Assembly (NCBI GenBank): GCA_050953065.1
Contig: JBMNLZ010000002.1
Coordinates: 319,305 to 383,304 of the forward strand
DNA length: 64,000 nucleotides
Reading direction: 5' to 3'
DNA from: Bacilli bacterium
GTDB taxonomy: Bacteria > Bacillota_I > Bacilli_A > ML615J-28 > CAG-698
The notes under the pieces are model-generated. The model saw nothing but the letters and a program-made list of their open reading frames with translations, was not told where the DNA came from and searched no databases. Each line of letters begins with the position of its first letter. Positions within the stretch are counted from its first letter, which is position 1. Below, one piece after another: positions 23,928-62,260 of this stretch. Made by a program: the position numbers and the translations under genes.

Positions 23928-24057
23928 AATAAGGAATCAAAGTGAAAATCTTTAGCTGCCCCAGCAACCGTGATATGAATGAAATGAGTTAACCACTGAA
24001 AAGTAAATTTTTTGGGAAGGTTCAAAGTAAAGTGAAGTTAAGCCGGGAGACTTGCCT
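23928..24057 (+). promoter_or_regulatory. Cobalamin (B12) riboswitch
   Basis: Direct matches to the cobalamin riboswitch consensus: GGAATcaAAGTGAAAATCtttaGCTGCCCCaGCAACCGTGA, B12 box cCACTGaaa, GGGAAGG, and the 3' AGCCgGGAGACtTGCC element. It lies about 35 nt upstream of the 24092 gene. Confidence 0.8.
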
Positions 24058-24091
24058 ATATTTAAAAATATAAAATAAATAAGGAGAAGAA

Positions 24092-26703: not shown

Positions 26704-26849
26704 AATTAATCACCTGCTTTTTATTTGTTTTAGATTTGATAATATAATTATACATTAATTATGACAAAATAACAATACTATTTTTAACAGTATATGTTGA
26801 CTGAGATATTTTTAAATGATACAATATAGGTGAAAGGAAGGAGAATGTT

Positions 26850-28977: not shown

Positions 28978-29371
28978 GTTTAATTATTTTTTGGTATGAT
29001 TCTTCTATTCTTTCAAGCGGAATCTTTCCTTCTTCAACTAATCTTACAAAAGTATTAAAAACATTGAATTGATCTTCTAATAAAGCTTGCCCACAAAAAA
29101 CAAGCATATCACATCCTGCCATCACAGAATTATAAATAACCTCTTCTAACAAATAATTCTTACTAATTGCTTGCATTGTTAAGGAATCTGTAACAATTAA
29201 TCCTTTAAAGTTTAGTTCATTAATTAAAAAATCTCTCACAATATTTTTAGATAAACTTGCAGGGTAAGTATCAAAACTAGAATAGATGATATGAGACATC
29301 ATAACCCCATCAATTCCTTGTTCTATTGCTTCTTTAAAAGGAATGATTATTCCATTAAATGTAGAAATCAT
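28934..29371 (-). pseudogene. nagZ: 5'-truncated beta-N-acetylhexosaminidase (GH3, NagZ-like) remnant
   Basis: Contains the GH3 nucleophile motif GFKGLIVTDSLTM and the C-terminal end of the domain, but lacks the roughly 180-200 N-terminal residues including KHFPGHG. Confidence 0.65.
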
Positions 29372-29372
29372 A

Positions 29373-29504
29373 GGTGAAAATGCTTTTGATTATAGTTATA
29401 CTGAAAATGCCATTTATTGTGTTGCTGAAAGTAGGCCTGAAGGTTGGAGTGATATTTGGAGTGGATCTTCTTGACCAGTAATTTGGGGCTATACTGGGGA
29501 ATAG
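29373..29504 (+). pseudogene. Decayed C-terminal fragment of a BspA-like LRR lipoprotein gene
   Basis: Translates to GENAFDYSYTENAIYCVAESRPEGWSDIWSGSS*PVIWGYTGE* with an in-frame TGA at 29472-29474. It is homologous to the …IQPEGWSEYWNNDGGTVVWGYTG* terminus of the 54077 gene. Confidence 0.6.
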
Positions 29505-29539
29505 GTTGACTTAATTACTTAAATAAAGGAAAGAGAAAA

Positions 29540-40793: not shown

Positions 40794-40799
40794 CTCTAC

Positions 40800-41035
40800 T
40801 AGATACGTTGATAAAGGACATGGTTAATAAATTAATTTTTTTACAAGAGAAAGTAGGCTGGTGGAAACTACTTAAAAATATTTATTAATTACTACCTTTG
40901 GAGTAGATTGAAAAAACAATCCGTAGTCTTTGCGTTAAAAGAGTTAAAAGTTGCATCTATTTATTATAGATGAATTAAGGTGGTACCGCGAAAAATTCGT
41001 CCTTATGTTTTTACATAGGGATTTTATATTTATAA
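40800..41035 (+). promoter_or_regulatory. T-box riboswitch leader of thrS
   Basis: Conserved T-box sequence AATTAAGGTGGTACCGCG, followed by a terminator hairpin ccttatg-ttttta-catagg(g) and a U-run just before the thrS RBS. The specifier codon was not pinpointed. Confidence 0.75.
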
Positions 41036-44734: not shown

Positions 44735-46039
44735 ATGATAGTAAATGTAATTGGAGCAGGACTTGCTGGGAGTGAGGCAACATATCAATTAATTAAAAGA
44801 GGCATCAAAGTAAATTTATATGAAATGAGACCTAAGGTAATGACTGAAGCTCATCAAACAGCTTTTTTTTCAGAGTTGATTTGTAGTAATTCTTTTAGAG
44901 CATTATCAATTGAAAATGCAGTTGGCCTGTTAAAAGAAGAAATGATTAGACTTGATTCTTTAATCATGAAAGCAGCTTTTAATGCTAAAATTGAAGCAGG
45001 TGGAGCATTAGCTGTTGATAGAGAGATTTTTGCTACATACATTACCGATTATTTAAAGAATAATCCATTAGTAAATGTAGTTAATGAAGAAGTAAAAGAT
45101 CTTTTAAAAGGTCCTACCATTATTGCAACAGGACCTTTAACTAGTAAAGATTTTTCTTTAAAAATAAAAGAGTTTTGTGGGGAAGAAGATTTATATTTTT
45201 TTGATGCTATTGCACCAATTATTTTAGAAGAAAGTATTTCTAAAGAGATTGCTTATTTAAAATCAAGATATGATAAAGGAGAAGCATCATATTATAATTG
45301 TCCAATGACTGAGGCTGAATTTGATAAGTTCTATGATGCTTTGATAAATGCAGAATGCATTACTCCAAAGGATTTTGAATTGAAAGTTTTTGAAGGATGT
45401 ATGCCAATAGAAGAAATGGCTAAAAGAGGTAAACAAACTCTACTTTTTGGTCCATTAAAGCCAGTTGGACTAACTAATCCAAAAACAGATAAAACTCCTT
45501 TTGCAGTTGTTCAACTTCGTCAAGATGATGTAGCTAAGACGATGTATAATATGGTTGGTTTTCAAACTCATTTAAAGTTTGGTGAACAAAAAAGAGTTTT
45601 TAGTTTAATTCCAGGGTTAGAAAACTTAGAGATTGTTAGATATGGTGTGATGCATAAAAATACTTTTATTAATTCTCCAAAAGTATTAAATAAATTTTAT
45701 CAATCAAATAAAAGAAATGATTTATTTTTTGCAGGTCAAATTACTGGAGTTGAAGGTTATTTAGAAAGTGCTTCATCTGGTCTGGTTGCTGGGATTAATA
45801 TGTCGTTATTTTTAAAAGGTCAAGAATTAATTGATTTTACTAAAGCAACATCAATTGGAGCACTAGCTCACTATATAAGTTCAGCTAATAAAGTTTTTCA
45901 ACCGATGAATGTTAATTTTGGAATTTTTGATGAAGTTGATGTTAGAAAGAAAAATCAAAGAAAGAAAGAGTATGCATCTAGGAGTTTAGATATAATAAAT
46001 AAGATTAAGGAAGTGCTAGATGAAAGATTTAATAAATAA
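44735..46039 (+). CDS. trmFO: Methylenetetrahydrofolate--tRNA-(uracil54-C5)-methyltransferase
   Basis: N-terminal FAD motif [11 protein letters not shown]; overall TrmFO (Gid) length; position upstream of xerC as in Bacillus. Confidence 0.9.
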
Positions 46040-46925
46040 ATATGAAACATATTTAATTGTTGAAAGAAAATATTCAGCTCATACAGTGATTAATTATGTA
46101 AAGGATGTTAATGAATTCTTTGATTATTTAAAGGGTAGTAAATTAGATTTTTTATCAGTTGGTCAAAATATTACAAGATATTATTTAGCATTCTTAAAAA
46201 AGAAAAACTTAACTCCAAGAAGCATTGCACGTAAGATGTCTAGTTTAAGATCTTTTTATAGATTCTTAATGATTGAAGGTAAGGTTGAGGCTAATATTTT
46301 TAATGAAGTAGTTTCCCCTAAAATTGATAAAACTTTACCTAGGTTTTTATATTATAACGAAATAGATCAACTCTTTGATAGTATTGATACAGCAACTATT
46401 ATGGGAAGACGTGATTTTGCGATTCTAGAAGTATTATATGGGACTGGAATAAGAGTTGCTGAACTTTGTAATTTAAAACTTAGTGATATTAACTTTTATT
46501 CAAATCATATCAGAGTAATGGGAAAGGGCGGTAAAGAACGTCAAATCCCATTTCATGATAATGTTAGAGCAGCTTTACTTGATTATATGGATTATTCAAG
46601 AATGGATATTCAAACTAAGAATAAAAAAAATATTGTTAATGAGGTTTTTTTAAATCATAGAGGAGAGGCTTTAACAACTAGAGGGGTTAGAGTGATTTTA
46701 GATAATATTAATCAAAAAGCAGCAACAACTCTAAATATTAGCCCACATATGTTAAGACATTCATTTGCGACCCATTTACTTGATAATGGAGCTGATTTAA
46801 GAAGTGTTCAAGAATTATTAGGACATGTTAATTTATCAACAACTCAAATCTATACACATGTTTCAAAAGAACAGTTAAAAACTGAATATATGTTACATCA
46901 CCCAAGAGCAAGGAGGAAAGAATAA
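46020..46925 (+). CDS. xerC: Tyrosine recombinase XerC/XerD family
   Basis: R…HxxR…Y catalytic signature ([10 protein letters not shown]…[15 protein letters not shown]). Confidence 0.85.
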
Positions 46926-47402
46926 ATGAGAGGTTTTAAAAAAATAAGTAAAGAAGTTTTTGAAAAAGATGGTGGCGCAAATTATGCAGGAGTTATAATT
47001 CCTAAAAGAGCTACTGCTTCATCTGCAGGCTATGATTTTGTTTTACCATATGATTTAGAATTAGTAAGTGGAGCTAGTGCTATTATTAAAACAGGGATTA
47101 AAGCTTATATGGAAAGCGATGAGTTTTTAATGATAGTTATTAGAAGTAGTTTAGGTTTTAAATATAATTTAAGATTAAAAAATCAAATGGGTATTATTGA
47201 TAGTGATTATTATGATAATGCTGAGAATGAAGGACATATTATGATTGCTATTAAAAATGAAGGTAATAGTAATGTTTTACTTCAAAGAGGAAGTAAAGTA
47301 GCTCAAGGGATTTTTATGAAGTATTTAGTAGCAAGTGGAGAAAAGGAAAACAATTTAAAGCGAATTGGTGGAATTGGTAGTACTGATCCAAAGAAGATAT
47401 AA
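46926..47402 (+). CDS. dut: dUTP diphosphatase
   Basis: dUTPase motifs AGYDF, RSSLG, GIIDSDY, and C-terminal RIGGIGSTD. Confidence 0.7.
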   Translation: MRGFKKISKEVFEKDGGANYAGVIIPKRATASSAGYDFVLPYDLELVSGASAIIKTGIKAYMESDEFLMIVIRSSLGFKYNLRLKNQMGIIDSDYYDNAENEGHIMIAIKNEGNSNVLLQRGSKVAQGIFMKYLVASGEKENNLKRIGGIGSTDPKKI

Positions 47403-47475
47403 AATAAATTTAATAGAAAGAAAATTATTGATGTAGTTTATTATATAATTATTAGGTATGAAAAAAGGGGGAAAT

Positions 47476-49050
47476 ATGAACAAAATTGAAAAGGTCTTTT
47501 TTTTGTTTTTGGCATTAGTTTGTTTTTTGTTAGTGGGATGTGCTAATAATGAAGATGAAGTTTTAGAAATTATTAGTGCTACAGGTTTTGAAATAGATGG
47601 GGCGAGTCTTTATCGTGAAGTGCCAAATTCTACGACAACATATTCATTTATTAATCAAATTAAAGTAAGTACTAAAGCAACTTGGGGATTATATACTGAT
47701 ATTACAGCAAGTAATAAAATTCTTTCAAAAACTATTGATCTTTTAGTTGGTGATAATATAGTATATATTTTAGTTACAAAAGCAGATGATATTAAATTAT
47801 ATAAAGTTGTAATTAAAAGATTAGCTATTTGTGATGTTTCTTTTGATACAAATGGTGGGGAAGTAATGGAAGTTCAAAATGTAGAAGAAGGTAATATGTT
47901 TAATCTTCCAACTGTAGAACCAACTAAAGCAGGTTATACTTTCAAAGGATGGGAAGATGCAAATGGTGATACAATTGTTTTTCCTATTAAAATAGAAGAA
48001 GATATTATTATTAAAGCAAAGTGGAAAGCAAATGAAAATACATTAGTCTTCAATGCAAATGGTGGGACAGGTGAGATGGATAACATTTTTATAGAAACAA
48101 ATGGTTCTATTAAACTTCCTAAAAATGCATTTTCAAAAATTGGATATTCATTTGATGGCTGGAGTGCTAGTTTAGATGGTGAAATTGAATATTTTGATAA
48201 AGCAAACTATACTATGGGTACACAAGAAAGTTATACTCTATATGCACAATGGGATAAACTTCCAGCACCAGAATTATATTTTGGATTAAAAGAAGATAAT
48301 ACATATGAACTTATTGGTTGTGCGGTTAATCCTACTGAAATATATATTCCAAAAAAATATTTAGGGAAACCAATTACAAGTATTAAGGAAAATGCTTTGG
48401 CTAATCTTTCAAATTTAACAAGTGTAACAATGTCATCAAATGTTACAAGTATAGGATTAGGTGCTTTTTCAGGGTGTGATAATTTAACAAGCATTATCAT
48501 ACCAAGGTCTGTAACAAATATGGGTAAGAATGTATTTTATGACTGTGATAAATTAAAAGTTTATATTAAAGCAGAATCTAAACCAATAGGTTGGGATAAG
48601 GATTGGAATGCTGATTATAGACCAGTTGTCTGGGGTTATGTGAGCAATCATATTACAACTAATGGAATAGAATATGGAATTTCTTTAATAGATTCTAATT
48701 ATGGTGTAACTATAACTGGTTATCAAGGATCTGGAAGAGAAGTAATAATTCCAACAGAAATTGCAGGCTATCCTGTTATAGACATAACTTCTTCTGCATT
48801 TTTTAAATGTACTGATATAACAAAAGTAAAAATTTCAAATACTGTTACAAGTATAGGGGTATGCGCGTTTTTTTACTGTAGTAGTTTAGAGTCTTTAATA
48901 ATACCAAAAAGCGTTGAAAAAATCGAAGGTGATATAGTTTATAGTTGTAGTTATTTAACAATTTATGTTGAAGCAGAAGAAAAACCTGCTGAATGGTATT
49001 ATGGATGGAATCATGATACTCATGATGTTGTTTGGGGATATAGGGAATAA
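47476..49050 (+). CDS. BspA-type LRR surface lipoprotein with Flg_new repeats (family N-terminal module)
   Basis: Signal peptide MNKIEKVFFLFLALVCFLLVGC; shared N-module ISATGFEIDG…LYKVVI; three Flg_new motifs; two LRR units each ending in a …KP.GW..W…VVWGY cap. Confidence 0.7.
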   Translation: MNKIEKVFFLFLALVCFLLVGCANNEDEVLEIISATGFEIDGASLYREVPNSTTTYSFINQIKVSTKATWGLYTDITASNKILSKTIDLLVGDNIVYILVTKADDIKLYKVVIKRLAICDVSFDTNGGEVMEVQNVEEGNMFNLPTVEPTKAGYTFKGWEDANGDTIVFPIKIEEDIIIKAKWKANENTLVFNANGGTGEMDNIFIETNGSIKLPKNAFSKIGYSFDGWSASLDGEIEYFDKANYTMGTQESYTLYAQWDKLPAPELYFGLKEDNTYELIGCAVNPTEIYIPKKYLGKPITSIKENALANLSNLTSVTMSSNVTSIGLGAFSGCDNLTSIIIPRSVTNMGKNVFYDCDKLKVYIKAESKPIGWDKDWNADYRPVVWGYVSNHITTNGIEYGISLIDSNYGVTITGYQGSGREVIIPTEIAGYPVIDITSSAFFKCTDITKVKISNTVTSIGVCAFFYCSSLESLIIPKSVEKIEGDIVYSCSYLTIYVEAEEKPAEWYYGWNHDTHDVVWGYRE

Positions 49051-49077
49051 AAGTCATTTTGAAAGGTAAGAAAAATT

Positions 49078-49287
49078 ATGGCAGAAAGACAAGTTATAAG
49101 AGATTTTTATAATAAAATTTTAGGTTATATTGAAGATAAAGGAAATTATTTAGTTGCAAGAAATTTCTATAATAAAATTTTAGGTTATTATTATAAAAAC
49201 AGAAACGTTACAACTGATTTTTATAATAGAGTCCTAGCAAATGGAAATATACTTGCTTCTTTAATAATGAATGATGCTAATAAATAA
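49078..49287 (+). CDS. Small protein (69 aa) with three tandem (R)(D/N)FYNKILGY repeats
   Basis: RBS AAAGGTAAG 8 nt upstream; internal repeats RDFYNKILGY / RNFYNKILGY / TDFYNRVLAN; immediately downstream of the 47476 gene. Confidence 0.35.
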   Translation: MAERQVIRDFYNKILGYIEDKGNYLVARNFYNKILGYYYKNRNVTTDFYNRVLANGNILASLIMNDANK

Positions 49288-49294
49288 AAGATTA

Positions 49295-49404
49295 AATAAA
49301 CTCTCTTTTAAAATAGAGAGTTTATTCAGACTGTAGAAAAACCTCTTTTTAAAAACAGTGCTTTTTCTACAGTCTGAAATGCTATCCTTAAGGATAGCAT
49401 TTTT
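49295..49404 (+). repeat. Block of three consecutive hairpins: a terminator, a 15-bp-stem long-loop hairpin, and a 24-nt perfect palindrome terminator
   Basis: H1 aaataaactctct…agagagtttattt; H2 cagactgtagaaaaa-N20-tttttctacagtctg (49327-49376); H3 aatgctatccttaaggatagcatt+Ts (49378-49401). Confidence 0.7.
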
Positions 49405-49488
49405 AATTGTTTAAAGTATAAAAAAATAAGGTAGGTAAAGATAATGACTAAAAAGTTATTTTTTAAAATTTAAGATATTTTTTTAATA

Positions 49489-49517
49489 TTGTTTAGAAAA
49501 GGGTTTTATTGTATAAT
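49489..49517 (+). promoter_or_regulatory. Promoter of the 49549 gene (TTGTTT-N17-TATAAT)
   Basis: TTGTTT 49489-49494, a 17-nt spacer agaaaagggttttattg, then TATAAT 49512-49517. Confidence 0.55.
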
Positions 49518-49548
49518 AAAATAGTATGAGAAGCGAGGAAAGATAATT

Positions 49549-50655
49549 ATGAATAAAATTAAAAAGATGTTATCTATATTACTTGTATTAATGTGTTTTT
49601 TATTAGTAGCTTGTAGGCAAAAGGAAAGTAAATATTTTGGTATAATTAATGCTATAGGGTTTGAAATGAATGGTGAAGTTATGTATATTAAAGTTTCAAA
49701 TGAAACTGATGAGTATTCATTTGTTGACCAAATTACAGTAACTGATGGAGCAACTTGGGAGTTATATAGTGATATATCAACAACTGATAAAATTGTTTCA
49801 AAAACAATAACTCTTTCAATGGGAAATAACATTGCATACATATTAGTTAGGAAGGCAGATAAAACTAAATTATATCATTGTATAGTGAATAGACAGACAT
49901 TAGAATTAAGCGTTAAAGGGTATGCTGTAGATGTTACTTTAAATGATGCTGGAGATATGACAATTGAAGAAACCCTAACAATGAATTATCCTGATAATTA
50001 TCATGTAATTTATAAAGATATTATTTATGATAAAGGTCCTAGTACAATTTTAACTGATAAAGCATATCTAGATGAAGATAGTTGTAATGTTAAAGTATAT
50101 GATATGATGGGTGAATTATTAACACTTGCAAGCACTGTAGATTGTAGTGATGGAGAATACTGGGTTGGTTATTCTTTTAATAAAGATAAAGATGAAAGAG
50201 GAATTGAGATAACTTGTCCACCTGAGATTACTTCAAAAACTTCAGAATGTGATTCTATCTTTGTTTATTTAAAAGATGGTATGCCATCAGAAATTACTTT
50301 TAAATTCACTTTTACAATAACTGGGGCTGTTACTGTTTATAATGATGTTGCTCAGTTGTATTGGACAATAATTGAATTTTTTGATAATGAAAAAATAGAT
50401 GCAAAAGTAAATATTAATTTACCAGCTAATACTTTTCTTGTTGAAGATTATTATTTGTTTGGTCATGGTTCATGTAATATAACTATTGATGAGATAGTTG
50501 AAAATGATAAAATGTCTATGAGTTTTGATATTGATGAGAATGATTTTATAGGACTTAGATTATTAACTCCAGTAGGCTTATTCCCTAATGCAAAAGAAGC
50601 TAATATTGTAGCTGCTGATAAAAAGGCAAGTATTTTAGAAGAAGAATCAGACTAG
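49549..50655 (+). CDS. Lipoprotein family member: shared N-terminal module fused to a different, non-LRR C-terminal domain
   Basis: Signal peptide MNKIKKMLSILLVLMCFLLVAC; N-module GIINAIGFEMNGEVMYIKV…LYHCIV homologous to those of 47476 and 54077; the C-terminal roughly 260 aa are unrelated. Confidence 0.6.
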   Translation: MNKIKKMLSILLVLMCFLLVACRQKESKYFGIINAIGFEMNGEVMYIKVSNETDEYSFVDQITVTDGATWELYSDISTTDKIVSKTITLSMGNNIAYILVRKADKTKLYHCIVNRQTLELSVKGYAVDVTLNDAGDMTIEETLTMNYPDNYHVIYKDIIYDKGPSTILTDKAYLDEDSCNVKVYDMMGELLTLASTVDCSDGEYWVGYSFNKDKDERGIEITCPPEITSKTSECDSIFVYLKDGMPSEITFKFTFTITGAVTVYNDVAQLYWTIIEFFDNEKIDAKVNINLPANTFLVEDYYLFGHGSCNITIDEIVENDKMSMSFDIDENDFIGLRLLTPVGLFPNAKEANIVAADKKASILEEESD

Positions 50656-50749
50656 TATTATAATAGTTTATAAGAAGACTAAATTATCACTAAAAGGCAA
50701 GTTATAAGATAATAGAAATAATCTTTAATAAACATTAAAAAGTATGAAG

Positions 50750-50779
50750 AATGCTATCCTTAAGGATAGCATTTTTTTG
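50750..50779 (+). terminator. Second copy of the 24-nt palindrome terminator
   Basis: aatgctatccttaaggatagcatt followed by T7; identical to 49378-49401. Confidence 0.75.
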
Positions 50780-50782
50780 CCC

Positions 50783-50811
50783 TTGTTAGAAAGGGTGTTT
50801 TATAGTATAAT
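50783..50811 (+). promoter_or_regulatory. Promoter of the 50860 gene (TTGTTA-N17-TATAAT), paralogous to the 49549 promoter
   Basis: cTTGTTAGAAAGGGTGTTTTATAGTATAAT versus TTGTTTAGAAAAGGGTTTTATTGTATAAT upstream of 49549. Confidence 0.55.
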
Positions 50812-50859
50812 ATATAAGAGTAAGTAAATATAGATATCTAACTTTAGAAAGGGGACTAA

Positions 50860-52500
50860 ATGAAAAAAATATTAGATAAAACAAAAGACTTTTTTAAAAA
50901 GATATGGAACTTTATAAAAAGAGTTTCTGTTAATAAGTATTATGATTTAAAGAAAAGATTTAATATGAAACAGTTTATTGTAGTAATCGCAACAACTATT
51001 TTTTCTGTTTTGTTTATAGTTTTATGTAATTTTGATTTTGCAAAAAGTGAATTCTTTTCAGGTTTTTTTGAAACTAATACTAGATTTGATGCAAGAGTTG
51101 TAGAAGTTGGTGATTCATTTTATGAAGATAAAACATTTTTAGAAGGTCATGATTATGATGAAGATAATTTAGTGCCAATTATTAGTTATAGAAAAACAGT
51201 TGTTTTTAAAGCAGAAATTACAAAAGGACCAACAAAAGGAGAAGTGATAGATGCTATCCAAATTTTACATTATGCTTTTGATAGTTGGCCTGAAGATAAA
51301 ATAAAGGTTGGGAAAAAAGTAATCCTACATGATTATAATAATAGTTTAATGTTTTTCCCTAGTTTAAAAAATTTAGAGGAAATGCCTGAAGCAACCTCAG
51401 GCAAACAAATGGTTAGAGTAGTATTTGATGATAATGTTTTTCAGTATATTGAAGTTGATGATGAGGCAGTAATTCCTTTAAATGAAATAGCAATTCCTGA
51501 AAAAGAAGGATATACTTTTGAAGGCTTTTACTTAATAAGTCCATATAGTCATTATGTTGATAATACTTTAATGGTAGATGAGGAATATAGTGTAGTTGAG
51601 GATGTAACAATAGTTGCAGGTTATAGTAAAGTTTATGATTATATCTTTTTAACATATAATAGAATTATTAATGCGATTATATTAGGAATTATTTTAATAC
51701 TTTGCTTGCTTATTATTGGTGGAATAAAAGGTTTCTTAACTTTACTTTCATTGTTATTTACAGTTCTTGGTCTTTTTGTTGTTTATGTACCAGCTATTTT
51801 ATCTGCTAGAAATATCTATCTTTGGACTATTATAACTTGTATTTTTATTTTAGTTATTACAGTACTTTATGTTGTTGGAGCTAATAAAAAAGGTTTAGCA
51901 GCTATTATTTCTTGTAGTGTGGGATTATTTGTTGGTGCGATTCTAACAGTAATAGTTCGTTATGCACTTAATTTTACTGGATATAAAGATGTTAGAGAAT
52001 ACCAATTATTGCTTTACCTAGATACACCAACTACAATTAACCTAAGAGCAATTCTTTTTGGAGCAATAACAGTAGGAGCTTTGGGTGCACTGATGGATAT
52101 AGGAATTTCTATTACATCAGCATTAAAAGAAGTAAATGATCAAATGACTAATCCAACTTTTAAACAAACTGTAAAGTCAGGATTTGTTATTGGACGAGAT
52201 ATTATGGGAACAATGGCAAATACATTATTACTTGCTTACATTGGAAGTTCATTAATCTTTACAGTCTTTTTAGCATCACATTTTAATTTACAAGCAATTT
52301 TTACAAGAGAAGATGTAGTGGTTGAGCTTGCTCAAATATTGATTGGGACTTTTACTTTATTATTAACTATTCCTGTTTCTATCTTTGTTAGTGCATGGCT
52401 TTATAATGGTGTATTAAAAGATAAAAATAAAAAGATGGAATTAGAAAAAGAAGTTGAAATAGAAGAAGTAAAAGAAATTGAAGTTAAAACAAATGAATAA
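50860..52500 (+). CDS. Polytopic membrane protein, YibE/F-like, with a roughly 220-aa extracytoplasmic domain
   Basis: N-terminal TM helix, an extracellular segment with a Flg_new-like motif (GYTFEGFYLISPY), then about 7 TM helices and an acidic C-tail. The family assignment is tentative. Confidence 0.4.
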   Translation: MKKILDKTKDFFKKIWNFIKRVSVNKYYDLKKRFNMKQFIVVIATTIFSVLFIVLCNFDFAKSEFFSGFFETNTRFDARVVEVGDSFYEDKTFLEGHDYDEDNLVPIISYRKTVVFKAEITKGPTKGEVIDAIQILHYAFDSWPEDKIKVGKKVILHDYNNSLMFFPSLKNLEEMPEATSGKQMVRVVFDDNVFQYIEVDDEAVIPLNEIAIPEKEGYTFEGFYLISPYSHYVDNTLMVDEEYSVVEDVTIVAGYSKVYDYIFLTYNRIINAIILGIILILCLLIIGGIKGFLTLLSLLFTVLGLFVVYVPAILSARNIYLWTIITCIFILVITVLYVVGANKKGLAAIISCSVGLFVGAILTVIVRYALNFTGYKDVREYQLLLYLDTPTTINLRAILFGAITVGALGALMDIGISITSALKEVNDQMTNPTFKQTVKSGFVIGRDIMGTMANTLLLAYIGSSLIFTVFLASHFNLQAIFTREDVVVELAQILIGTFTLLLTIPVSIFVSAWLYNGVLKDKNKKMELEKEVEIEEVKEIEVKTNE

Positions 52501-52513
52501 ATATTTTAAAGAT

Positions 52514-52545
52514 AAAGAATGCTTATTTTAAGCATTCTTTTTTTG
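52514..52545 (+). terminator. Rho-independent terminator (aaagaatgct stem family)
   Basis: aaagaatgct-tatttta-agcattcttt hairpin plus T-run. Confidence 0.75.
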
Positions 52546-52582
52546 TTAAAGAATTTATAAAAAGGTTTTTAATAATAATTAT

Positions 52583-52654
52583 ACAAAAAACCCCGACTGA
52601 TATTGACAAAAAACCCCGACTGATATTGACAAAAAACTCCGATTATAGTATTAT
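52583..52654 (+). promoter_or_regulatory. Tandem 23-nt direct repeats (2 full copies plus 1 degenerate) that embed the promoter of the 52683 gene
   Basis: acaaaaaaccccgactgatattg at 52583-52605 and 52606-52628, with a degenerate third copy. TTGACA 52626-52631, 17-nt spacer, TATTAT 52649-52654; an extra TTGACA sits at 52603-52608. Confidence 0.6.
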
Positions 52655-52682
52655 AAAGGTAAGAAAGTAAGGAGAAAGCGAA

Positions 52683-53969
52683 ATGATTTTAAAACCAAAA
52701 AAATATAGAAAAAGAATAATAGATAAAAAAATTAGCGAAAACCTTAAGATATTTGGAGCACTATGTATAGAAGGACCTAAATGGTGTGGTAAAACATGGA
52801 CAGCTTTAAATCATGCAAATAGTGTCATTTATATAGGTAATCCTGAAAGAAATTTTCAAAACCGCACATTAGCTAGTTTAGACCCACTTTCTGTTTTGAA
52901 AGGTGAATATCCAAGATTGATTGATGAATGGCAAGAAGTTCCTTCTTTATGGGATGCTGTAAGGTTTGAAGTTGATAAAAATGCCATAAGAGGTCAATTC
53001 ATTTTGACTGGCTCATCAACTCCTCAACATAAAGGTATTTTACATAGTGGAACTGGTAGAATTGATAAAATAAAGATGAGGACAATGTCTCTTTATGAAT
53101 CTAGTGATTCTAGTGGTGATGTTTCTTTAATTGAATTGTTTGATAATAAAGTAAAAACACAACAAACAAAAAAAGTATCACTTGAGGAATTAATTGAATT
53201 TGTGGTCAGAGGTGGCTGGCCTATGAGTTTAGGTTTATCAGAAGAACAATATACTAAAATTCCACAATCCTATATTGAGTCAATTATAACAGATGATTTA
53301 GAAAAATTAGATGGTATAAAAAGAGAACAAAAAAAGATTAGAGCATTATTTAAGTCATTAGCAAGAAATGAAAGTACACTTGCTAGTAATAAAGTTTTGA
53401 AGAATGATATTTTAGAATTTGAAAAAGAATCAATTAGTGAAGATATAATTCCAGTGTATTTAGATTTGTTAGATAGAATGTTTTTGATTGAAAATCAACC
53501 TTCTTTTAATCCTAATTATCGTTCTAAAGATAGGGTAGCTAAATCACCTAAACGACATTTTATTGATCCTTCACTAGCAGTGGCAGCCCTGGGTTTATCA
53601 TCAAAAATGTTATATAATGATTTAGAATTTTTTGGTTTATTATTTGAAAGTTTAGTTATTAGAGATTTAAGAATTTATGCTGATGCTCATAGTGGAAAGG
53701 TTTATCATTATAAGCATTTTGATACAAATCACGAGATAGATGCAATTGTTGAATTGCAAGATGGAAGATGGATTGCGATTGAAATTAAACTAGGAGCAAA
53801 TCAAATTGATGAGGCTGCTAAAAAATTATTAAAAATCAATGAATCCTTAAAAAAAGACCCTAAAGCAAGCAGGCCTTGTGCATTAGTAATTATTTGTGGT
53901 CTTCTTGATGTTACATATAAAAGAGAAGATGGTGTAATTGTTATTCCACTTACTTCATTAAAACCGTAG
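52683..53969 (+). CDS. AAA+ ATPase with DUF4143 domain (second copy, divergent from the 31154 gene)
   Basis: Walker A GPKWCGKTW, Walker B LIDEWQ, C-terminal DUF4143-like region. Confidence 0.7.
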   Translation: MILKPKKYRKRIIDKKISENLKIFGALCIEGPKWCGKTWTALNHANSVIYIGNPERNFQNRTLASLDPLSVLKGEYPRLIDEWQEVPSLWDAVRFEVDKNAIRGQFILTGSSTPQHKGILHSGTGRIDKIKMRTMSLYESSDSSGDVSLIELFDNKVKTQQTKKVSLEELIEFVVRGGWPMSLGLSEEQYTKIPQSYIESIITDDLEKLDGIKREQKKIRALFKSLARNESTLASNKVLKNDILEFEKESISEDIIPVYLDLLDRMFLIENQPSFNPNYRSKDRVAKSPKRHFIDPSLAVAALGLSSKMLYNDLEFFGLLFESLVIRDLRIYADAHSGKVYHYKHFDTNHEIDAIVELQDGRWIAIEIKLGANQIDEAAKKLLKINESLKKDPKASRPCALVIICGLLDVTYKREDGVIVIPLTSLKP

Positions 53970-53986
53970 ATTTCGTTAGTTAGTGA

Positions 53987-54017
53987 AAAAAGAATGCTTA
54001 TTACTAGCATTCTTTTT
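53987..54017 (+). terminator. Rho-independent terminator, near-duplicate of 52514-52545
   Basis: aaaaagaatgct-tattact-agcattcttttt; same stem as the upstream copy with 2 loop differences. Confidence 0.75.
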
Positions 54018-54018
54018 C

Positions 54019-54047
54019 TTGTTTATAGTTTTTATTTGTTGTATAAT
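54019..54047 (+). promoter_or_regulatory. Promoter of the 54077 gene (TTGTTT-N17-TATAAT)
   Basis: TTGTTT 54019-54024, a 17-nt spacer, then TATAAT 54042-54047; same architecture as the 49549 and 50860 promoters. Confidence 0.55.
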
Positions 54048-54076
54048 ACATATTATGAATAAGAGAGGAATAAAAA

Positions 54077-56659
54077 ATGAATAAAATTAAAAGAATATTT
54101 TTTATATTATTTATCTTAATGGCTTTTTTATTAGTAGCATGTGGGAAGGCTGAAGAAGATTTTGGTATTATTAGTGCTACAGGATTTAAAATTGATGGAA
54201 CTAATTTAGCACTTGAAGTTTCTAGTTTGACTGATACATTTTCTTTTACTGGAAAAATTAAAGTAGAAGAAGGCGTAACTTGGGAATTGTATACAGATAA
54301 AAAAACTACCAACAAAATCACTTCAAATGAAGTTAATCTAATAGATGGAGAAAACATTTTATATCTTAAAGTTATAAAGGGCAAGGAAACTAAATTATAT
54401 AAAGTTACAATTACAAAATCAGATACAGCTGAAAATACTTTAGTCTTTAATGCAAATGGTGGAATAGGTGAAATGACAAGTATTTTACTAGTAGAAAATA
54501 CTTCTATTACACTACCTAAAAATACATTTACAAAAGAAGAAGCTACATTTATTGGCTGGAGTACATCAAAAGATGGTGATGTAGAATATTTAGATGAAGC
54601 AAGTTACACAGTAACTAACAAAACAAGTTGCACACTTTATGCAAAATGGGAAATTAATACTTATAAATTAACATTATCTAGAAATCCAATTCTAGCAGGG
54701 ACTGTAACTGGTTCTGGAACAAAAGAATATAATAGCCAAGTAGAAATTACTGCTACTACAAAGTCAGGTTATGAATTTTTAGGTTGGTATGAAGGTACAG
54801 ATTTAATATCTGATAATTCTACTTATACATTTACTATGCCAGCAAGAAACATACTTTATCAAGCAAAGTGGAAAGCAAATATTAATACATTGTCATTTGA
54901 TGCAAATACTGGTGAAGGAGAAATGGAAAGTGTTACAGCAGAAACCGCTAAAACTATCAGCCTTCCTAATAATGCATTTTATAAAGAAGGTTATAACTTT
55001 TTAGGTTGGAGTACTAGTAAAGAAGGAAGTGTTCAATATCAAAATGAAGGAACTTATAAAATGGGACCACTAGAAAGTTATACCCTATATGCAAAATGGG
55101 AAATTGCAAGTTATACACTAAATTTAACTATAAACAATTCAAATGCAGGAAGTGTAACTGGTGGAGGTAGAATATTATATAACACTGAAGTAGAAATAAA
55201 AGCTAATGCAAATCCAGGCTATACATTTTTGGGTTGGTATGAAGGTAATGCTTTAGTAACACAACAGTCTACTTATACATTTAATATGCCAGGAAATTAT
55301 GTACATTATGAAGCAAGATGGGAAGCTACTTCAAATTTTGGTTTAACGTTTAATTTGAAAGAAGATGATACATATGAAGTTGTTGGATATCAGGGGAATC
55401 CTAAAGATCTTTATATTGGAGAAAACTATGAAGGAAAAGCAATTACAAGTATAGCTAGTAATGCTTTTTCTGAATGCATGAGTTTAGAAAGTATAATTTT
55501 ATCAGAAGGCTTATTAAGTATAGGCGAAAGATCTTTTTATGGTTTAACAAAATTGCATGAAATAGTAATGCCGAAAAGTGTTACTCATATGGGTTATCTT
55601 GCTTTTGGTGGTTGTATTAATGTAATACTTTATGCAAGAGTTGCTAGTCAACCAAGTGAATGGAATAGTTATTGGAATAATAACGGTATTCCTGTTTATT
55701 GGGGATATATAAGAAAAGGTGAGACTTCTGAGTTAAAATATATAGTTGCACAAATGGGAGAAGATGCTCCTTATAGTATTACAATAACTGGTTATAAAGA
55801 AACTCCAAGTGAATTAGTAATACCAGAAACAATAGAAGGCTATCCTGTTAAAGATATAGCTAATCTAGCTTTTATTGGCAACAAGATGACAAGCCTTATT
55901 ATTCCAGAGACTGTTACCGGTATAGACAGTAGTGCTTTTTATAATTGCACTAAACTTAAAAATGTAATAATTCCTTCAAGTGTTGTATATATAGGTAGTT
56001 CTGCATTTGATTTTTGTAGTGATTTAATAATTTATGCTAAAGCAGAAACAAAACCTGCTGGTTGGAATAATTTGTGGAATGTAAGAACTAGAACTGTAGT
56101 ATGGGGATATGTAAGTCATGGTGTTACTCTTGATGGATTTGAATATGGAGTATCATTTATTGATTCTGTTTATTGTATAACAATATCAGGTTATGAAGGA
56201 AGTTTAACTGAAATAGTAATACCAGAAACAATAGAAAACTATCCTGTTGCTATTATAAGTTGTTATGCTTTTGTTAATCGTATTGATTTAGAAAGTATTA
56301 CACTTCCATCAACTCTTACAAAGATAGAAAAGGGAGCTTTTTCTCATTGCAGTGGTCTAACAAACATCATAATTCCTTCAAGTGTTAAGAATATAGATTT
56401 TCTTGCTTTTTATGGATGTACAAGTCTAATAAGCGCTGTAATTTCAGATGGAGTTCAAAGTATAGGCGAATCTGTTTTTGGTAATTGTACTGCACTAACA
56501 AATATAATAATTCCTTTGAGTGTTACATTTATGGATAATTATGTATTTTTTAATTGTAAAGGTTTAACAATTAATTGTAGGGCTTCAATTCAACCAGAAG
56601 GATGGAGTGAATATTGGAATAATGATGGTGGAACAGTAGTCTGGGGTTACACTGGATAA
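54077..56659 (+). CDS. BspA-type LRR surface lipoprotein (860 aa) with family N-module, four Flg_new repeats and three capped LRR blocks
   Basis: Signal peptide MNKIKRIFFILFILMAFLLVAC; N-module ISATGFKIDG…LYKVTI; Flg_new motifs (…FLGWYEG…); three LRR blocks ending in SQPSEWNSYWNNNGIPVYWGY, TKPAGWNNLWNVRTRTVVWGY and IQPEGWSEYWNNDGGTVVWGYTG. Confidence 0.75.
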   Translation: MNKIKRIFFILFILMAFLLVACGKAEEDFGIISATGFKIDGTNLALEVSSLTDTFSFTGKIKVEEGVTWELYTDKKTTNKITSNEVNLIDGENILYLKVIKGKETKLYKVTITKSDTAENTLVFNANGGIGEMTSILLVENTSITLPKNTFTKEEATFIGWSTSKDGDVEYLDEASYTVTNKTSCTLYAKWEINTYKLTLSRNPILAGTVTGSGTKEYNSQVEITATTKSGYEFLGWYEGTDLISDNSTYTFTMPARNILYQAKWKANINTLSFDANTGEGEMESVTAETAKTISLPNNAFYKEGYNFLGWSTSKEGSVQYQNEGTYKMGPLESYTLYAKWEIASYTLNLTINNSNAGSVTGGGRILYNTEVEIKANANPGYTFLGWYEGNALVTQQSTYTFNMPGNYVHYEARWEATSNFGLTFNLKEDDTYEVVGYQGNPKDLYIGENYEGKAITSIASNAFSECMSLESIILSEGLLSIGERSFYGLTKLHEIVMPKSVTHMGYLAFGGCINVILYARVASQPSEWNSYWNNNGIPVYWGYIRKGETSELKYIVAQMGEDAPYSITITGYKETPSELVIPETIEGYPVKDIANLAFIGNKMTSLIIPETVTGIDSSAFYNCTKLKNVIIPSSVVYIGSSAFDFCSDLIIYAKAETKPAGWNNLWNVRTRTVVWGYVSHGVTLDGFEYGVSFIDSVYCITISGYEGSLTEIVIPETIENYPVAIISCYAFVNRIDLESITLPSTLTKIEKGAFSHCSGLTNIIIPSSVKNIDFLAFYGCTSLISAVISDGVQSIGESVFGNCTALTNIIIPLSVTFMDNYVFFNCKGLTINCRASIQPEGWSEYWNNDGGTVVWGYTG

Positions 56660-56687
56660 AAAAAGTTTAAATACATAATTTATATTT

Positions 56688-56712
56688 AAAGCCACCTAGG
56701 TGGCTTTTTAAT
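56688..56712 (+). terminator. Rho-independent terminator
   Basis: aaagccacc-tag-gtggcttt hairpin plus T-run. Confidence 0.8.
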
Positions 56713-56735
56713 TTGGAATAGCAATTAAATTTCTC

Positions 56736-56764
56736 TTGATTAGTTAAGTATAATGTGTTATAAT
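56736..56764 (+). promoter_or_regulatory. Promoter of the rpsB-tsf operon
   Basis: TTGATT 56736-56741, a 17-nt spacer, TATAAT 56759-56764; a second TATAAT-like hexamer lies within the spacer. Confidence 0.5.
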
Positions 56765-56888
56765 TATCAAGGCAAAAAAAATACACACACTAAGTTAGAG
56801 TCTCGTCAGGTGCACATTTTGTGTGGCGTGGACTTGGTAGAAACTAGTGGAGGCCAAACGAAAAAAAATGAAAGGAAGAAAAGAAAAA

Positions 56889-57971
56889 ATGTCAGTAATT
56901 ACAATGAAGCAATTGCTTGAAGCAGGAGTTCATTTCGGTCACAATACTCGCCGTTGGAACCCTAAAATGAAAGAGTATATTTTTGGAGAAAGAAATGGTA
57001 TTTATATCATTGATTTAGCCAAAACAGAAGAAAAGGTTGAAGAAGCTTATAAAGCATTATTCAACATTGTTCAAAACAATGGAACAGTTTTATTTGTTGG
57101 AACAAGGAAACAAACTCAAGAAGTTATTAAAGAAGAGGCTATTCGTTGTGGTCAATATTATGTTGACCAAAGATGGTTGGGTGGTACTCTAACAAACTTT
57201 AAAACAATTAGAAGAAGTATTGGAAGATTAAGAGAAATTGAAAAAATGGAAGAAGATGGAATTTTTGAAGTTCTTCCAAAAAAAGAAGTAATTTTAATTA
57301 AAAAAGAAAAAGAAAAACTAGAAAAGTTTTTTAATGGTATAAAAGATATGGTAAACCGTCCTTCTGCGATGGTAGTAGTTGACCCTAAGAGTGAACATAA
57401 TGCAGTTAAGGAAGCAAAAAAATTAGATATACCTGTATTTGGTTTAGTTGATACAAACTGCGATCCAGATGAAGTTGATTATGTTATTCCAGGTAACGAT
57501 GATGCGATTCGTGCTGTAAAATTAATTGTTGGAACTTTAGCTAATGCTGTAGTTGAAGCTCAAGGCGGAACTCCAATCGTTATCGAATTTACTGATGATA
57601 TGCCTGAGGAGAGACCTCAAAGAAAAGCTTATCAAAAAGATGGAGAAAAACGTGGTTATGGTAGACGTCCTTATAAAACTTCAAGAGAAGGTAGGGGCGA
57701 TAAAGATTCTGATAGTGAAAAAGTAGAAGAAGTTGCAAAAGAAGTAAAAGCAGCAAAGAAAACTGCAGTTAAAGCAGAAAAAGAAGTAAAAACAGAAAAG
57801 CCAGCTAAAGCAGACAAAGAAGAAAAGAAAGAAAAACCAGCCAAAGTAGAAAAGGAAGTAAAAGAAGAAACTCCTAAAAAAACTAAGAAAACTGAAGAAA
57901 CTACAGTAGCGGAAGAAAAACCGAAACGTGTAAAAAAAGCTGATACAGATTCTAAAACGGAGGGAAAATAA
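56889..57971 (+). CDS. rpsB: 30S ribosomal protein S2 with a roughly 110-aa Lys/Glu-rich C-terminal extension
   Basis: Canonical S2 N-terminus [18 protein letters not shown] with RBS AAAGGAAG 10 nt upstream. The conserved core ends around residue 250 and is followed by a KE-rich tail. Confidence 0.9.
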
Positions 57972-60226: not shown

Positions 60227-60274
60227 ATTATAAATTTGGTAAAATATAGATATGAAAGAGGTGAAAAAAATAAA

Positions 60275-62260
60275 ATGAGAATTTTAAAAAGTTTATTACT
60301 AATACTTGTTTTTAGTTTGTTTTTAGTTGGCTGTAAAACTAAAGAAACATTTACAGTTAAGTTTATGGATGGTGATACTGAACTTGGTAGTGTTACAGTT
60401 AAAAAAGGTGGAGATGCAGAAGCTCCAGAAAACCCAACAAAAGAAGGCTATGATTTTACTGGTTGGGATATAGCATATACAGATGTTGAGGGAGATTTAG
60501 TAGTTAAAGCCATTTTTACAATTAAAACATTTGAAGTTAAGTTTATGGTAGATGGTGCTCCATATGGTGATCCTGTTATAGTTAATTATGGTGCTGATGC
60601 GGTTCTACCAAATAATCCAATTAAAGTAGGTTTTAAATTTGTAAAGTGGGATACTAATACAACTAATGTAAAATCAAATTTAGAAGTTAATGCAGAGTTT
60701 ACTGTAGCTACATATTCTGTTGTTTTTAGAGTAGATGGTATTCAAGAAGGTGAAACTCAAACAATTACACATGGAGAAGCTGCAACTGCTCCAGATGATC
60801 CAGTAAAGGAAGGCTATAAATTTATTGGCTGGGATAATGAATTTGAAGAAGTTACAAGTGATTTAATTATAAGTGCTGTCTTTGAACCGATTATGTTCAA
60901 AGTAAGATTCTATGAAGATGAAACAAAATTAATTGAAGAATTTGATGTTGCGTATGGAACTGATGCAACTGCTCCCGCAGCCCCTTTAAAAGAAGGTTTT
61001 AGGTTCCAAGCTTGGGATAAGACATTTACAAATGTTAAATCAAATCTTGATGTAACAGCAATTTATGTAGTAGCAACATTTGAAGTTAAGTTTATCGTTA
61101 ATGGTGTTCAACAAGGTGCAACTCAAACTATTGAATATGGAAAAGATGCAATTGCTCCAGATGATCCTTTAAGAGATGGTTATAATTTTACTGGTTGGAG
61201 TGCTGCTTATACTAATGTAAAAAGTAATTTAACAATCACAGCAGAATTTAGTATTATTACTTATGAAATTAAGTATTATGATGGCTCAACTCTTTTAACT
61301 CATACTCCTGCATCATATGATATCAATACTGCAGTAACATTTACTGAATATGAAAAAGAGGGTTTCTTATTTACAGGTTGGTATGAAACTGATGAATTAA
61401 AAACTGTTAAAACCGGAATTACACTTGGTTCTTTTGGTATTGTAACAGTTTATGGAGAATGGTTAGATCCAGATTTAACTTATACAGTTAATTTTGACTT
61501 AAAAGGTGGTGCTTGGAATTGGACAACAGGAGAAGTTACTAAATTAACTAGTGGCGATTATACAGGCTATTATGCAATTGATAGCGTATCTAATTTACCT
61601 GAAATATTTATGCAAGACTTCTTTGTATACTTATCAGATAAAGATTTATTAAATTCTTCATTAGTTTATGCAACTTTAAGAACAACAACTTGGCAAGCAT
61701 TTAGTGAAAAATTTGATGACCCTGTAGCTAGTTATAACCGTACAAGTACTATGTATGCATCAACACCTGATGGATATAATCAATTCTTCTGGGATTCAAT
61801 TTCAAATGGTGAAGCAGTTGGTGGATTCTTTGGAAGCGAACCTTATAAGAGTAAATATGCTAACTTATTAAGTCATTTAATTTACATGTATCCATTTAAA
61901 TATAGTGCTGATATTAGTACAGCAGTTGGAAGAGCTTTAGTTGGATTTATTTTAGATGGTTTATTCTATGGTACACAAACTTATACTGCTGGTTCTACGT
62001 TTGAAGCATTCCGTTCAAAAATTCCTACAACTACAGTAAGATGGAATTCAACTGCTACTGAATATACAGAAAATATTTATCCAGTAGTAACTTATATTCA
62101 AGGATTAAAATATAATTTACCACATCCATCTAGAGAAGGATATTTCTTTAGGGGATGGTATAGTGATGAAGAATGTACTGGCGATGCTATCTTATTTATA
62201 GATCGTGGTGTGGTTCCTGCTGCAACATATTATGCTAAATGGGAAAGTATTGGATCTTAA
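60275..62260 (+). CDS. Surface lipoprotein with six tandem Flg_new (Listeria-Bacteroides) repeats and an uncharacterised roughly 270-aa C-terminal domain
   Basis: Signal peptide MRILKSLLLILVFSLFLVGC; six roughly 75-aa repeats (F.VKF…G…P..P.KEGY.F.GWD…V.S.L.V.A.F); C-terminal region ending …FFRGWYSDEECTGD (Flg_new-like). Confidence 0.65.
   Translation: MRILKSLLLILVFSLFLVGCKTKETFTVKFMDGDTELGSVTVKKGGDAEAPENPTKEGYDFTGWDIAYTDVEGDLVVKAIFTIKTFEVKFMVDGAPYGDPVIVNYGADAVLPNNPIKVGFKFVKWDTNTTNVKSNLEVNAEFTVATYSVVFRVDGIQEGETQTITHGEAATAPDDPVKEGYKFIGWDNEFEEVTSDLIISAVFEPIMFKVRFYEDETKLIEEFDVAYGTDATAPAAPLKEGFRFQAWDKTFTNVKSNLDVTAIYVVATFEVKFIVNGVQQGATQTIEYGKDAIAPDDPLRDGYNFTGWSAAYTNVKSNLTITAEFSIITYEIKYYDGSTLLTHTPASYDINTAVTFTEYEKEGFLFTGWYETDELKTVKTGITLGSFGIVTVYGEWLDPDLTYTVNFDLKGGAWNWTTGEVTKLTSGDYTGYYAIDSVSNLPEIFMQDFFVYLSDKDLLNSSLVYATLRTTTWQAFSEKFDDPVASYNRTSTMYASTPDGYNQFFWDSISNGEAVGGFFGSEPYKSKYANLLSHLIYMYPFKYSADISTAVGRALVGFILDGLFYGTQTYTAGSTFEAFRSKIPTTTVRWNSTATEYTENIYPVVTYIQGLKYNLPHPSREGYFFRGWYSDEECTGDAILFIDRGVVPAATYYAKWESIGS

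Follow-up and report, generated by a model that had tools for sequence, protein, structure and literature searches.

Three neighboring genes that begin alike and end differently raise the question of what their common beginning is for. The genes, denoted g1, g2 and g3, lie within a 64-kb stretch of contig JBMNLZ010000002.1 (assembly GCA_050953065.1) from an uncultured Bacilli bacterium. The entire stretch, referred to here as the window, was searched for copies of the family; its G+C content is 24–35% and the plus strand carries nearly all of its genes. The original prediction, made from the sequence alone, described a domain-shuffled, independently transcribed, antigen-like lipoprotein family in which the conserved 5′ module might serve in anchoring or export or as a handle for recombination. 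The underlying observation is real, except for the promoter assigned to g1 and an overstated identity between promoters. The interpretation is right on domain shuffling and on the independence of the genes, but wrong or unnecessary on the export or anchoring domain and on the recombination handle. Instead, g1, g2 and g3 probably are old paralogous surface lipoproteins of an uncultured low-GC Bacilli lineage in which an immunoglobulin (Ig)-like stalk bears varied distal domains.

The shared N-terminal module

The three proteins open with MNKIEKVFFLFLALVCFLLVGC (g1), MNKIKKMLSILLVLMCFLLVAC (g2) and MNKIKRIFFILFILMAFLLVAC (g3), each comprising MNKI(E/K)(K/R), a 14-residue hydrophobic stretch and FLLV[GA]C. 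The basic n-region, hydrophobic h-region and canonical lipobox ([LVI][ASTVI][GAS]-C) of lipoprotein signal peptides are present in all three with the cysteine at residue 22, in agreement with the common signal peptide MNKI[EK][KR]...LLV[GA]C recognized at the outset. The signal peptide is the sole hydrophobic segment in each protein, and on these sequence features g1, g2 and g3 are predicted to be lipid-anchored and surface-exposed. The ribosome-binding site AAGGGGGAA falls inside the extension of the longest g1 open reading frame (ORF), which commences at 47458; therefore position 47476, the start assigned initially, is the likelier. A protein identical to g1 is present on JGI contig L002 from the same species.

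Similarity among the proteins is not confined to the signal peptide. The N-terminal module, estimated previously at roughly 85 amino acids (aa), spans 89 aa (aa 28–116) beyond the lipobox, with 30 of the 89 columns invariant and pairwise identities of 44–51%; over the first ~140 aa the values are 46–48%. When the first 120 aa were used in tblastn, the other two copies were recovered at E-values of 1e-31 to 1e-36 and no fourth copy was found in the window.

Direct scores of the module against the Pfam Cadherin-like family PF12733 fall below the gathering threshold of 24.2 bits, with 20.5 bits (E 6.5e-4) for the g1 module alone. An exhaustive search of 1.84 billion cluster representatives with a profile built from the three modules gave 1411 matches at E≤1e-3, of which 341 reach E≤1e-10; the best-scoring ones hold 5–12 tandem copies of the module. 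Four of the matched proteins (P0003, P0005, P0018 and P0022; E 2e-71 to 8e-29) are called as PF12733 by Pfam at E 2e-49 to 2e-21, with coordinates that coincide with those of the module profile. Furthermore, PF12733 is matched by 63 of 74 members of the family alignment at E≤0.01, some of them above the cut-off (for example P0057 at 34.3 bits). In a word-indexed search of proteins, the module profile recovered just two incomplete sequences, both on contigs of low coverage from the same organism or one nearly identical to it. AlphaFold2 modeling on the 74-sequence alignment gave a confident all-β, Ig-like prediction with nine β-strands (pLDDT 93.5, pTM 0.82), in which the first ~10 residues after the cysteine are less certain (mean pLDDT 71). 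The best Foldseek match in the PDB was 8aa2_G, a surface glycan-binding lipoprotein of a levan utilisome (TMq 0.60), followed by Ig domains of Dscam and titin, cadherin EC domains and other SusE/F-like proteins. Overall, the module belongs to the Cadherin-like (PF12733-related) Ig-like β-sandwich family as a divergent member and is not a new domain type.

Among the best 150 of the 1411 representatives, the module lies within 60 aa of the N-terminus in 44, and a lipobox-like motif, counted with a rough regular expression, precedes it in 38 of these 44. Flg_new directly follows the module in all ten proteins sampled from other organisms and diverse sources, and LRR_5 is present in eight of the ten. 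The lipobox–module–Flg_new–LRR_5 architecture is widespread in database proteins, which makes the arrangement in the three genes genuine but commonplace. In closer relatives, this signal peptide and module also are joined to five Big_2 domains in P0021 and to Bact_surface_Ig-like in P0020, and occur in a 2825-aa protein, P0017. In P0013, P0023, L003_3418 and a protein of the congener L086, a Flg_new domain separates the module from the signal peptide; in the close relative L003, the module is internal to a protein of 1371 aa (aa 589–675), and elsewhere it forms tandem arrays of up to 12 matched stretches. The L086 protein joins the module to RCC1-like repeats, recognized by eye from WGDNSxGQLGDG. 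The outer domains seen so far (LRR_5, DUF2207_N, Big_2, RCC1-like and Bact_surface_Ig-like) bear out the description of the family as domain-shuffled.

As the module also follows Flg_new or is situated internally, it is a mobile structural unit and not an export or anchoring signal; the lipoprotein signal peptide explains both of these functions. A more elaborate proposal would make the module a sorting or export determinant that is recognized by dedicated machinery, possibly the YibE/F-family membrane protein encoded between g2 and g3, so that it would serve as a docking handle for surface display. The strong association with lipoprotein N-termini in one subfamily (the 38 of 44 proteins above) would fit, as would the promoter type that the YibE/F gene has in common with the family. 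Nevertheless the proposal is extremely unlikely: adjacency to the signal peptide is not required, because the module follows Flg_new or is internal in close relatives, and the portions of L003, L005 and L086 that were retrieved show no YibE/F gene.

Might the module instead be an active domain that engages carbohydrate or protein, makes Ca2+-dependent homophilic contacts or oligomerizes, with the variable C-termini modulating this activity? Nine positions (V, D, L, G, N, Y, V, Y and R, including a G-D/N-N..Y motif) are nearly invariant over the 74 members, papers on bacterial polysaccharide-degrading enzymes mention PF12733 domains, and glycan-binding lipoprotein domains are among the best Foldseek matches. 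However, on inspection the conserved residues are mostly hydrophobic core and turn positions typical of β-sandwiches. Moreover, arrays of 5–12 tandem copies are typical of structural spacers, and the location directly after the predicted lipid anchor also favors a spacer. An active role for the module is considered unlikely in comparison with that of a stalk.

Variable C-terminal domains and divergence of the paralogs

The C-terminal regions were said to differ, with two arrays of Flg_new and capped leucine-rich repeats (LRRs) and one unrelated domain of 260 aa, and this was confirmed. The g1 protein has two Flg_new repeats (74.6 bits) and two capped stretches of LRR_5 (99.3 bits). The g3 protein possesses four to six Flg_new/Flg_new_2 repeats (100.5/103.8 bits) and three LRR_5 stretches (188.3 bits). 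The gathering thresholds are 27.7 bits for LRR_5 (PF13306), 27 bits for Flg_new (PF09479) and 23.6 bits for PF18998. Repeated blocks of BspA-type LRR_5 thus characterize g1 and g3, and are lacking in g2; Listeria–Bacteroides repeats (PF09479/PF18998) likewise are found in g1 and g3, which also match TIGR02543.

The distinct domain of g2 (aa 122–296) is of the DUF2207 N-terminal type (PF09972; 54.6 bits, E 2e-14, gathering threshold 24.4 bits). Canonical DUF2207 proteins continue beyond the N-terminal extracytoplasmic domain with transmembrane helices and a C-terminal region. The g2 protein has no transmembrane segment besides the signal peptide and ends at aa 368, so that the canonical transmembrane and C-terminal parts are not present. 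Thus, g2 carries the DUF2207 N-terminal domain alone, grafted onto the lipoprotein and module scaffold. The combination of module and DUF2207_N has no counterpart among the 150 module matches, and a word-indexed search with the g2 C-terminal domain yielded P0001 alone, one of the two fragments recovered with the module profile, and no relatives of the domain. A single-sequence AlphaFold2 model of full-length g2 (pLDDT 37) was not usable.

The relationship between the genes also was assessed at the DNA level. The first 351 nucleotides (nt) of g1, g2 and g3 are 67–69% identical with longest exact runs of 11–17 nt, and the longest exact run across the whole genes is 20 nt. The g1 module is 61–69% identical to modules from other metagenomes, compared to 44–51% within the window; as it is closer to the former than to its neighbors, g1, g2 and g3 are regarded as old paralogs that have not been homogenized. 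The proposal that the module is a recombination handle is not upheld by these values.

Mycoplasma vsp, vlp and vsa loci are lipoprotein gene clusters in which the mature parts vary and the 5′ region, with promoter and signal peptide, is conserved. The cluster described here shares these traits and belongs to a lineage related to Mollicutes-like Bacilli, which invites the view that it is a phase- or antigenic-variation system in which the 5′ cassette is a substrate for recombination or promoter switching and the heads are expressed in turn. The promoter–terminator cassette (see below) and the signal peptide are conserved over paralogs with different mature parts, a tyrosine recombinase gene (46020–46925) is located two genes upstream of g1, and the content of the locus differs between close relatives. 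In contrast to the Mycoplasma loci, the 5′ regions are only 67–83% identical in DNA sequence, exact runs are short, the modules show no concerted evolution, and there is no dedicated invertase, flanking recombination site or repeat-tract switch. The candidate invertase is the housekeeping recombinase XerC (TIGR02224, 335.5 bits; cut-off 335.15), encoded in a conserved trmFO-xerC pair that is kept in relatives without the gene cluster. Inverted repeats close to the promoters are limited to palindromic terminators, and neither promoter spacers nor 5′ coding regions hold long homopolymer or short-repeat tracts. All of the genes are complete, on the same strand and equipped for expression. A switching system of this type therefore is very improbable.

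Terminator–promoter cassettes in the dut-rpsB island

The motif TTGTTW-N17-TATAAT occurs four times in the window compared to 0.32 occurrences expected. Three matches, on the plus strand, precede g2, the YibE/F gene and g3 (Table 1); the fourth (26747–26775, minus strand) is upstream of a PadR-family regulator gene (26311–26703, minus strand). A promoter of this type had been proposed for all three lipoprotein genes and the YibE/F gene. It is present for three of the four (49549, 50860 and 54077) but not for g1 at 47476, upstream of which there is no match and only a lone TATAAT (47444–47449) with AAAATT at the −35 position. The claim that the promoters at 49489–49517 and 50783–50811 share about 40 of 45 nt also was too high: the sequences agree at 22 of 29 positions without gaps and at 34 of 42 aligned columns, counted by hand, with two 1-nt gaps.

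The terminators follow a similar pattern. Eight terminator-like sites were detected in the region compared to 2.1 expected, with one after each gene except g1, and none was found between dut and g1. AATGCT...AGCATT stems are found at four places in the island, the sole other match in the window being inside the 32640–36731 coding sequence, and recur beside family genes in L003 and L005. A single cassette is alignable across seven intergenic regions from three organisms in the order hairpin, T-run, (C/A)TTGTTT, 17 nt ending in TTG, TATAAT, ~25 nt, GAGG and ATG. The promoters are alike mainly because these homologous intergenic cassettes were duplicated with the genes. By their sequence, the family promoters would be of the ordinary sigma-A type with a TG-extended −10 element. 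A motif for a special sigma factor was considered and rejected: TTGTTW matches TTGACA at four of six positions, the motif also is found at the PadR gene, a close variant, TTGTTT-N17-TATTAT, lies before the ATPase gene at 31154, and the TTTATTGTATAAT −10 element also is located before uppS. The additional promoter similarity is explained by common descent of the cassettes.

Every member of the family comes with a start codon, signal peptide, ribosome-binding site and predicted terminator of its own, and two of the three have the promoter motif. Thus, the genes look independent, as had been proposed, and do not constitute a silent-cassette shufflon. The 69-aa ORF downstream of g1, for which a called gene with the same start position exists on contig L002 and which has no match in Pfam, probably is co-transcribed with g1.

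The genomic setting was investigated with a TrmFO scan of GTDB, which served for both taxonomy and synteny. TrmFO is 82% and 69% identical to the homologs in STD2_143 and MAG140, respectively, which are metagenome-assembled genomes of uncultured 'Bacilli bacterium', 66% identical to that of Haloplasmataceae, and 55–60% identical to those of Anaeroplasma, Acholeplasma and Izemoplasma. In L007, L008 and L009 (67–69% TrmFO identity) the gene order is trmFO-xerC-dut-rpsB-tsf-pyrH-frr, with dut and rpsB either adjacent or separated by one gene for a 224-aa membrane protein. In the window, all family genes studied sit within a 9.4-kb insert between dut and rpsB. None of 80 GTDB loci around trmFO carries the module, and a GTDB scan with two strict peptide patterns found no relative.

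The content of the insert varies between close relatives. The congener L086, whose housekeeping proteins mostly are 79–94% identical, has a different island of 6 kb at the same site. This encodes a membrane protein, a 304-aa protein that is short-chain dehydrogenase-like by sequence motifs, and one family lipoprotein of 1215 aa (L086 12566–16213) with Flg_new, the Cadherin-like module, an RCC1-like repeat block and more Flg_new repeats. L003, a nearer relative than L086, has four module-bearing genes in 15 kb. It is 93.6% identical in DNA sequence over 53990–56973 and shares g3 and rpsB, with different family genes upstream and a breakpoint exactly at the terminator at 53990. The family thus is multi-copy and variable, and not single-copy and invariant. 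The dut-rpsB island, its lineage specificity, its variability and the recurrence of a homologous cassette within it are newly described here. The g3 ortholog in L003 is 91% identical (module 90%) with dS, the synonymous divergence, of about 0.10. The ratio of nonsynonymous to synonymous divergence (dN/dS) is 0.47, which is relaxed and not clearly diversifying; the L003 assembly has 3.3x coverage. 'Antigen-like' can be applied to the family only as a conjecture.

Two further genes in the island, those for the YibE/F protein and for an AAA_14/DUF4143 ATPase (52683), are outside the lipoprotein family; the membrane protein that had been noted at 50860 is confirmed as YibE/F (E 1e-58). The hairpins at 52514 and 53989 on either side of the ATPase gene are 76% alike over 46 nt. 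These flanking hairpins, and the absence of the gene at this site in L003, suggest gain or loss of the gene through recombination of the cassettes with each other. A 23-nt tandem repeat, ACAAAAAACCCCGACTGATATTG, is located just 5′ of the ATPase gene (52583–52642; 2.6 copies, 97% matches), and its last copy provides the TTGACA −35 element of the ATPase promoter.

The preferred reading of g1, g2 and g3 as stalk-bearing lipoproteins can be set out as follows. The proteins would be exported via the lipoprotein signal peptide and lipid-anchored at Cys22, with about 5–9 flexible residues as a tether. One Cadherin-like Ig-like β-sandwich would follow, most likely as a membrane-proximal stalk or spacer. 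In g1 and g3 the distal part would consist of Flg_new spacers and BspA-type LRR_5 arrays as putative adhesin or ligand-binding heads, and in g2 of the DUF2207 N-terminal-type domain. Transcription units look independent, with a promoter of the sigma-A type (TTGTTW, 17 nt, TG-extended TATAAT) a short distance beyond each predicted intrinsic terminator; g1 would be the exception and probably is expressed by read-through from xerC-dut or from a −10-only promoter. The family probably arose by duplication of whole units (terminator–promoter cassette, signal peptide and module) followed by accretion and swapping of domains, in what appears to be a fast-turning-over accessory island between dut and rpsB.

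Several observations weigh against this reading. The full proteins score low against PF12733 (15.5 bits for g1, 14.7 for g3 and no match at E≤0.1 for g2; threshold 24.2 bits). Foldseek E-values against the PDB are weak (≥5e-3), and the fold assignment is generically Ig-like and not specifically cadherin-like; a sequence profile search of the PDB gave no more than marginal cadherin matches (E 0.008). The module dN/dS between g3 and its ortholog is 0.75, on 15 differences only, and the passive spacer role is presumed. Finally, the L086 family member has no promoter cassette.

A bolder possibility is that the cassette, the 'SFLLVAC' signal peptide and the Ig-like module together form a portable display scaffold that captures and exposes new outer domains at a dedicated dut-rpsB hot spot, with turnover fast enough for the content to differ at dS of about 0.1, and with the module docking to a specific membrane partner instead of acting as an inert spacer. 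This is decidedly improbable.

Table 1. Positions in the window of the island, its genes and its predicted control elements
Feature	Position	Strand	Remarks
Lineage-specific island, 9.4 kb	47403–56846	+	Between dut (46926–47402) and rpsB (56847–57971)
g1	47476–49050	+	524-aa predicted lipoprotein: signal peptide, Cadherin-like module, Flg_new x2, LRR_5 x2 with capping motifs
g1 lipoprotein signal peptide	47476–47541	+	MNKIEKVFFLFLALVCFLLVG then C (Cys22); lipobox L-V-G-C after hydrophobic stretch
g1 shared module	47557–47823	+	aa 28–116; predicted Cadherin-like β-sandwich; PF12733 E 6.5e-4, AlphaFold2 pLDDT 93.5
69-aa ORF	49078–49287	+	Three ~20-aa repeats (R/T)(D/N)FYN(K/R)(I/V)L; 28 nt 3′ of g1, no terminator between
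Three consecutive hairpins 3′ of 69-aa ORF	49293–49403	+	Last (49376–49403) terminator-like, holds 27-nt repeat AATGCTATCCTTAAGGATAGCATTTTT
Predicted g2 promoter	49489–49517	+	TTGTTT-N17-TATAAT, TG-extended −10
g2	49549–50655	+	368-aa predicted lipoprotein: signal peptide, module (49630–49896), DUF2207 N-terminal-type domain (aa 122–296, 49912–50436)
Terminator hairpin	50750–50776	+	Exact 27-nt copy of 49378–49404
Predicted YibE/F-gene promoter	50783–50811	+	TTGTTA-N17-TATAAT
YibE/F-family membrane protein	50860–52500	+	PF07907 E 1e-58; N-terminal transmembrane helix, ~200-aa region before YibE/F core
Terminator hairpin	52514–52540	+	AAAGAATGCTTATTTTAAGCATTCTTT; related to hairpin at 53987
AAA_14/DUF4143 ATPase	52683–53969	+	Own predicted TTGACA-17-TATTAT promoter (52626–52654); between two related terminators; absent there in L003
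Terminator hairpin	53987–54017	+	Also left breakpoint of segment 93.6% identical to L003
Predicted g3 promoter	54019–54047	+	TTGTTT-N17-TATAAT, TG-extended −10; conserved in L003
g3	54077–56659	+	860-aa predicted lipoprotein: signal peptide (54077–54142), module (54155–54421), Flg_new/Flg_new_2 repeats, three capped LRR_5 blocks
Terminator hairpin after g3	56688–56707	+	

Related systems and other features of the window

The strong LRR_5 arrays of g1 and g3 (99 and 188 bits), with conserved KPxGW...VVWGY caps, resemble those of BspA-type LRR surface proteins such as Tannerella forsythia BspA and Streptococcus HupY/LrrG. They differ in that g1 and g3 have a predicted N-terminal lipid anchor followed by the Cadherin-like module and Flg_new spacers. 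An expanded BspA-like family also is present in 'Ca. Mycoplasma girerdii' (PMC4206474), likewise as multiple copies in a Mollicutes-related organism; in the window, further LRR_5 lipoproteins are encoded at 29540 and 32640. Listeria internalins similarly combine LRR heads with Flg_new (InlB B-repeat-type) domains, and NCBIfam internalin models match partially, confined to the Flg_new region (43–75 bits against cut-offs of 1050–1600). However, the repeats here are LRR_5 and not internalin LRRs with a cap and an Ig-like inter-repeat region, the order is reversed with spacers first and the LRR distal at the C-terminus, and the proteins have a predicted lipid anchor in place of LPXTG or GW attachment.

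The module resembles PF12733 domains in profile homology over the same segments, in its length of ~89 aa and in the all-β fold, but the window copies score below the gathering value and belong to a divergent subfamily that typically is the first domain after the lipobox. N-terminal Ig-like domains of Bacteroidota lipoproteins (DUF1735, SusE/F) have been proposed as membrane-bound spacers for diverse C-termini (PMC11216935). The DUF1735/BACON/SusE-F N-termini follow the same design of a lipoprotein signal peptide, one Ig-like β-sandwich and diverse C-terminal domains, and the best fold match, 8aa2_G, belongs to such surface glycan-binding lipoproteins. In contrast, the phylum is different and there is no polysaccharide utilization locus context here; the parallel is a functional analogy only, with sequence homology to these domains not demonstrated.

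The findings leave current concepts unchanged. Their value is principally in annotation, as they assign the 'unknown' N-terminal module found in many lipoproteins of Firmicutes/Bacilli to a divergent form of Cadherin-like Ig-like domain, under-detected by the current Pfam model, and document lipobox–Cadherin-like–Flg_new–LRR_5 as a recurrent architecture. They also identify the dut-rpsB junction as the site of a variable island for surface proteins in an uncultured Bacilli lineage whose relatives include Haloplasma and Acholeplasma. Proteins of the g1, g2 and g3 type would be candidate adhesins if the organisms are host-associated.

Elsewhere in the window, four genes encode predicted lipoproteins without the shared module: 29540–30715 (Flg_new, LRR_5 and Big_2), 32640–36731 (1363 aa; LRR_5 and Flg_new), 36732–37895 (a metallo-β-lactamase-fold protein) and 60236–62260 (five Flg_new repeats). 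The genome is rich in LRR_5/Flg_new-type surface proteins. An LRR_5 capping-motif remnant with an in-frame TGA (...RPEGWSDIWSGSS*PVIWGYTGE*) at 29355–29513 on the plus strand, 5′ of the lipoprotein gene at 29540, probably is a decayed fragment of the family. Each of two AAA_14/DUF4143 ATPase genes (31154–32365 and 52683–53969) is directly 5′ of a large LRR_5 lipoprotein gene (32640–36731 and 54077–56659, respectively).

An Rfam scan found no known RNA family in the 47–57 kb region; it identified a T-box leader at 40799–41007 (94.6 bits) and a cobalamin riboswitch at 23892–24073 (87.1 bits). In the rpsB region (window 56770–57971; L086 16270–17687), conservation with the congener L086 extends to a 5′ leader, for which Rfam gives no report at the gathering threshold, and the rpsB product bears a lysine/glutamate-rich C-terminal extension of ~120 aa.

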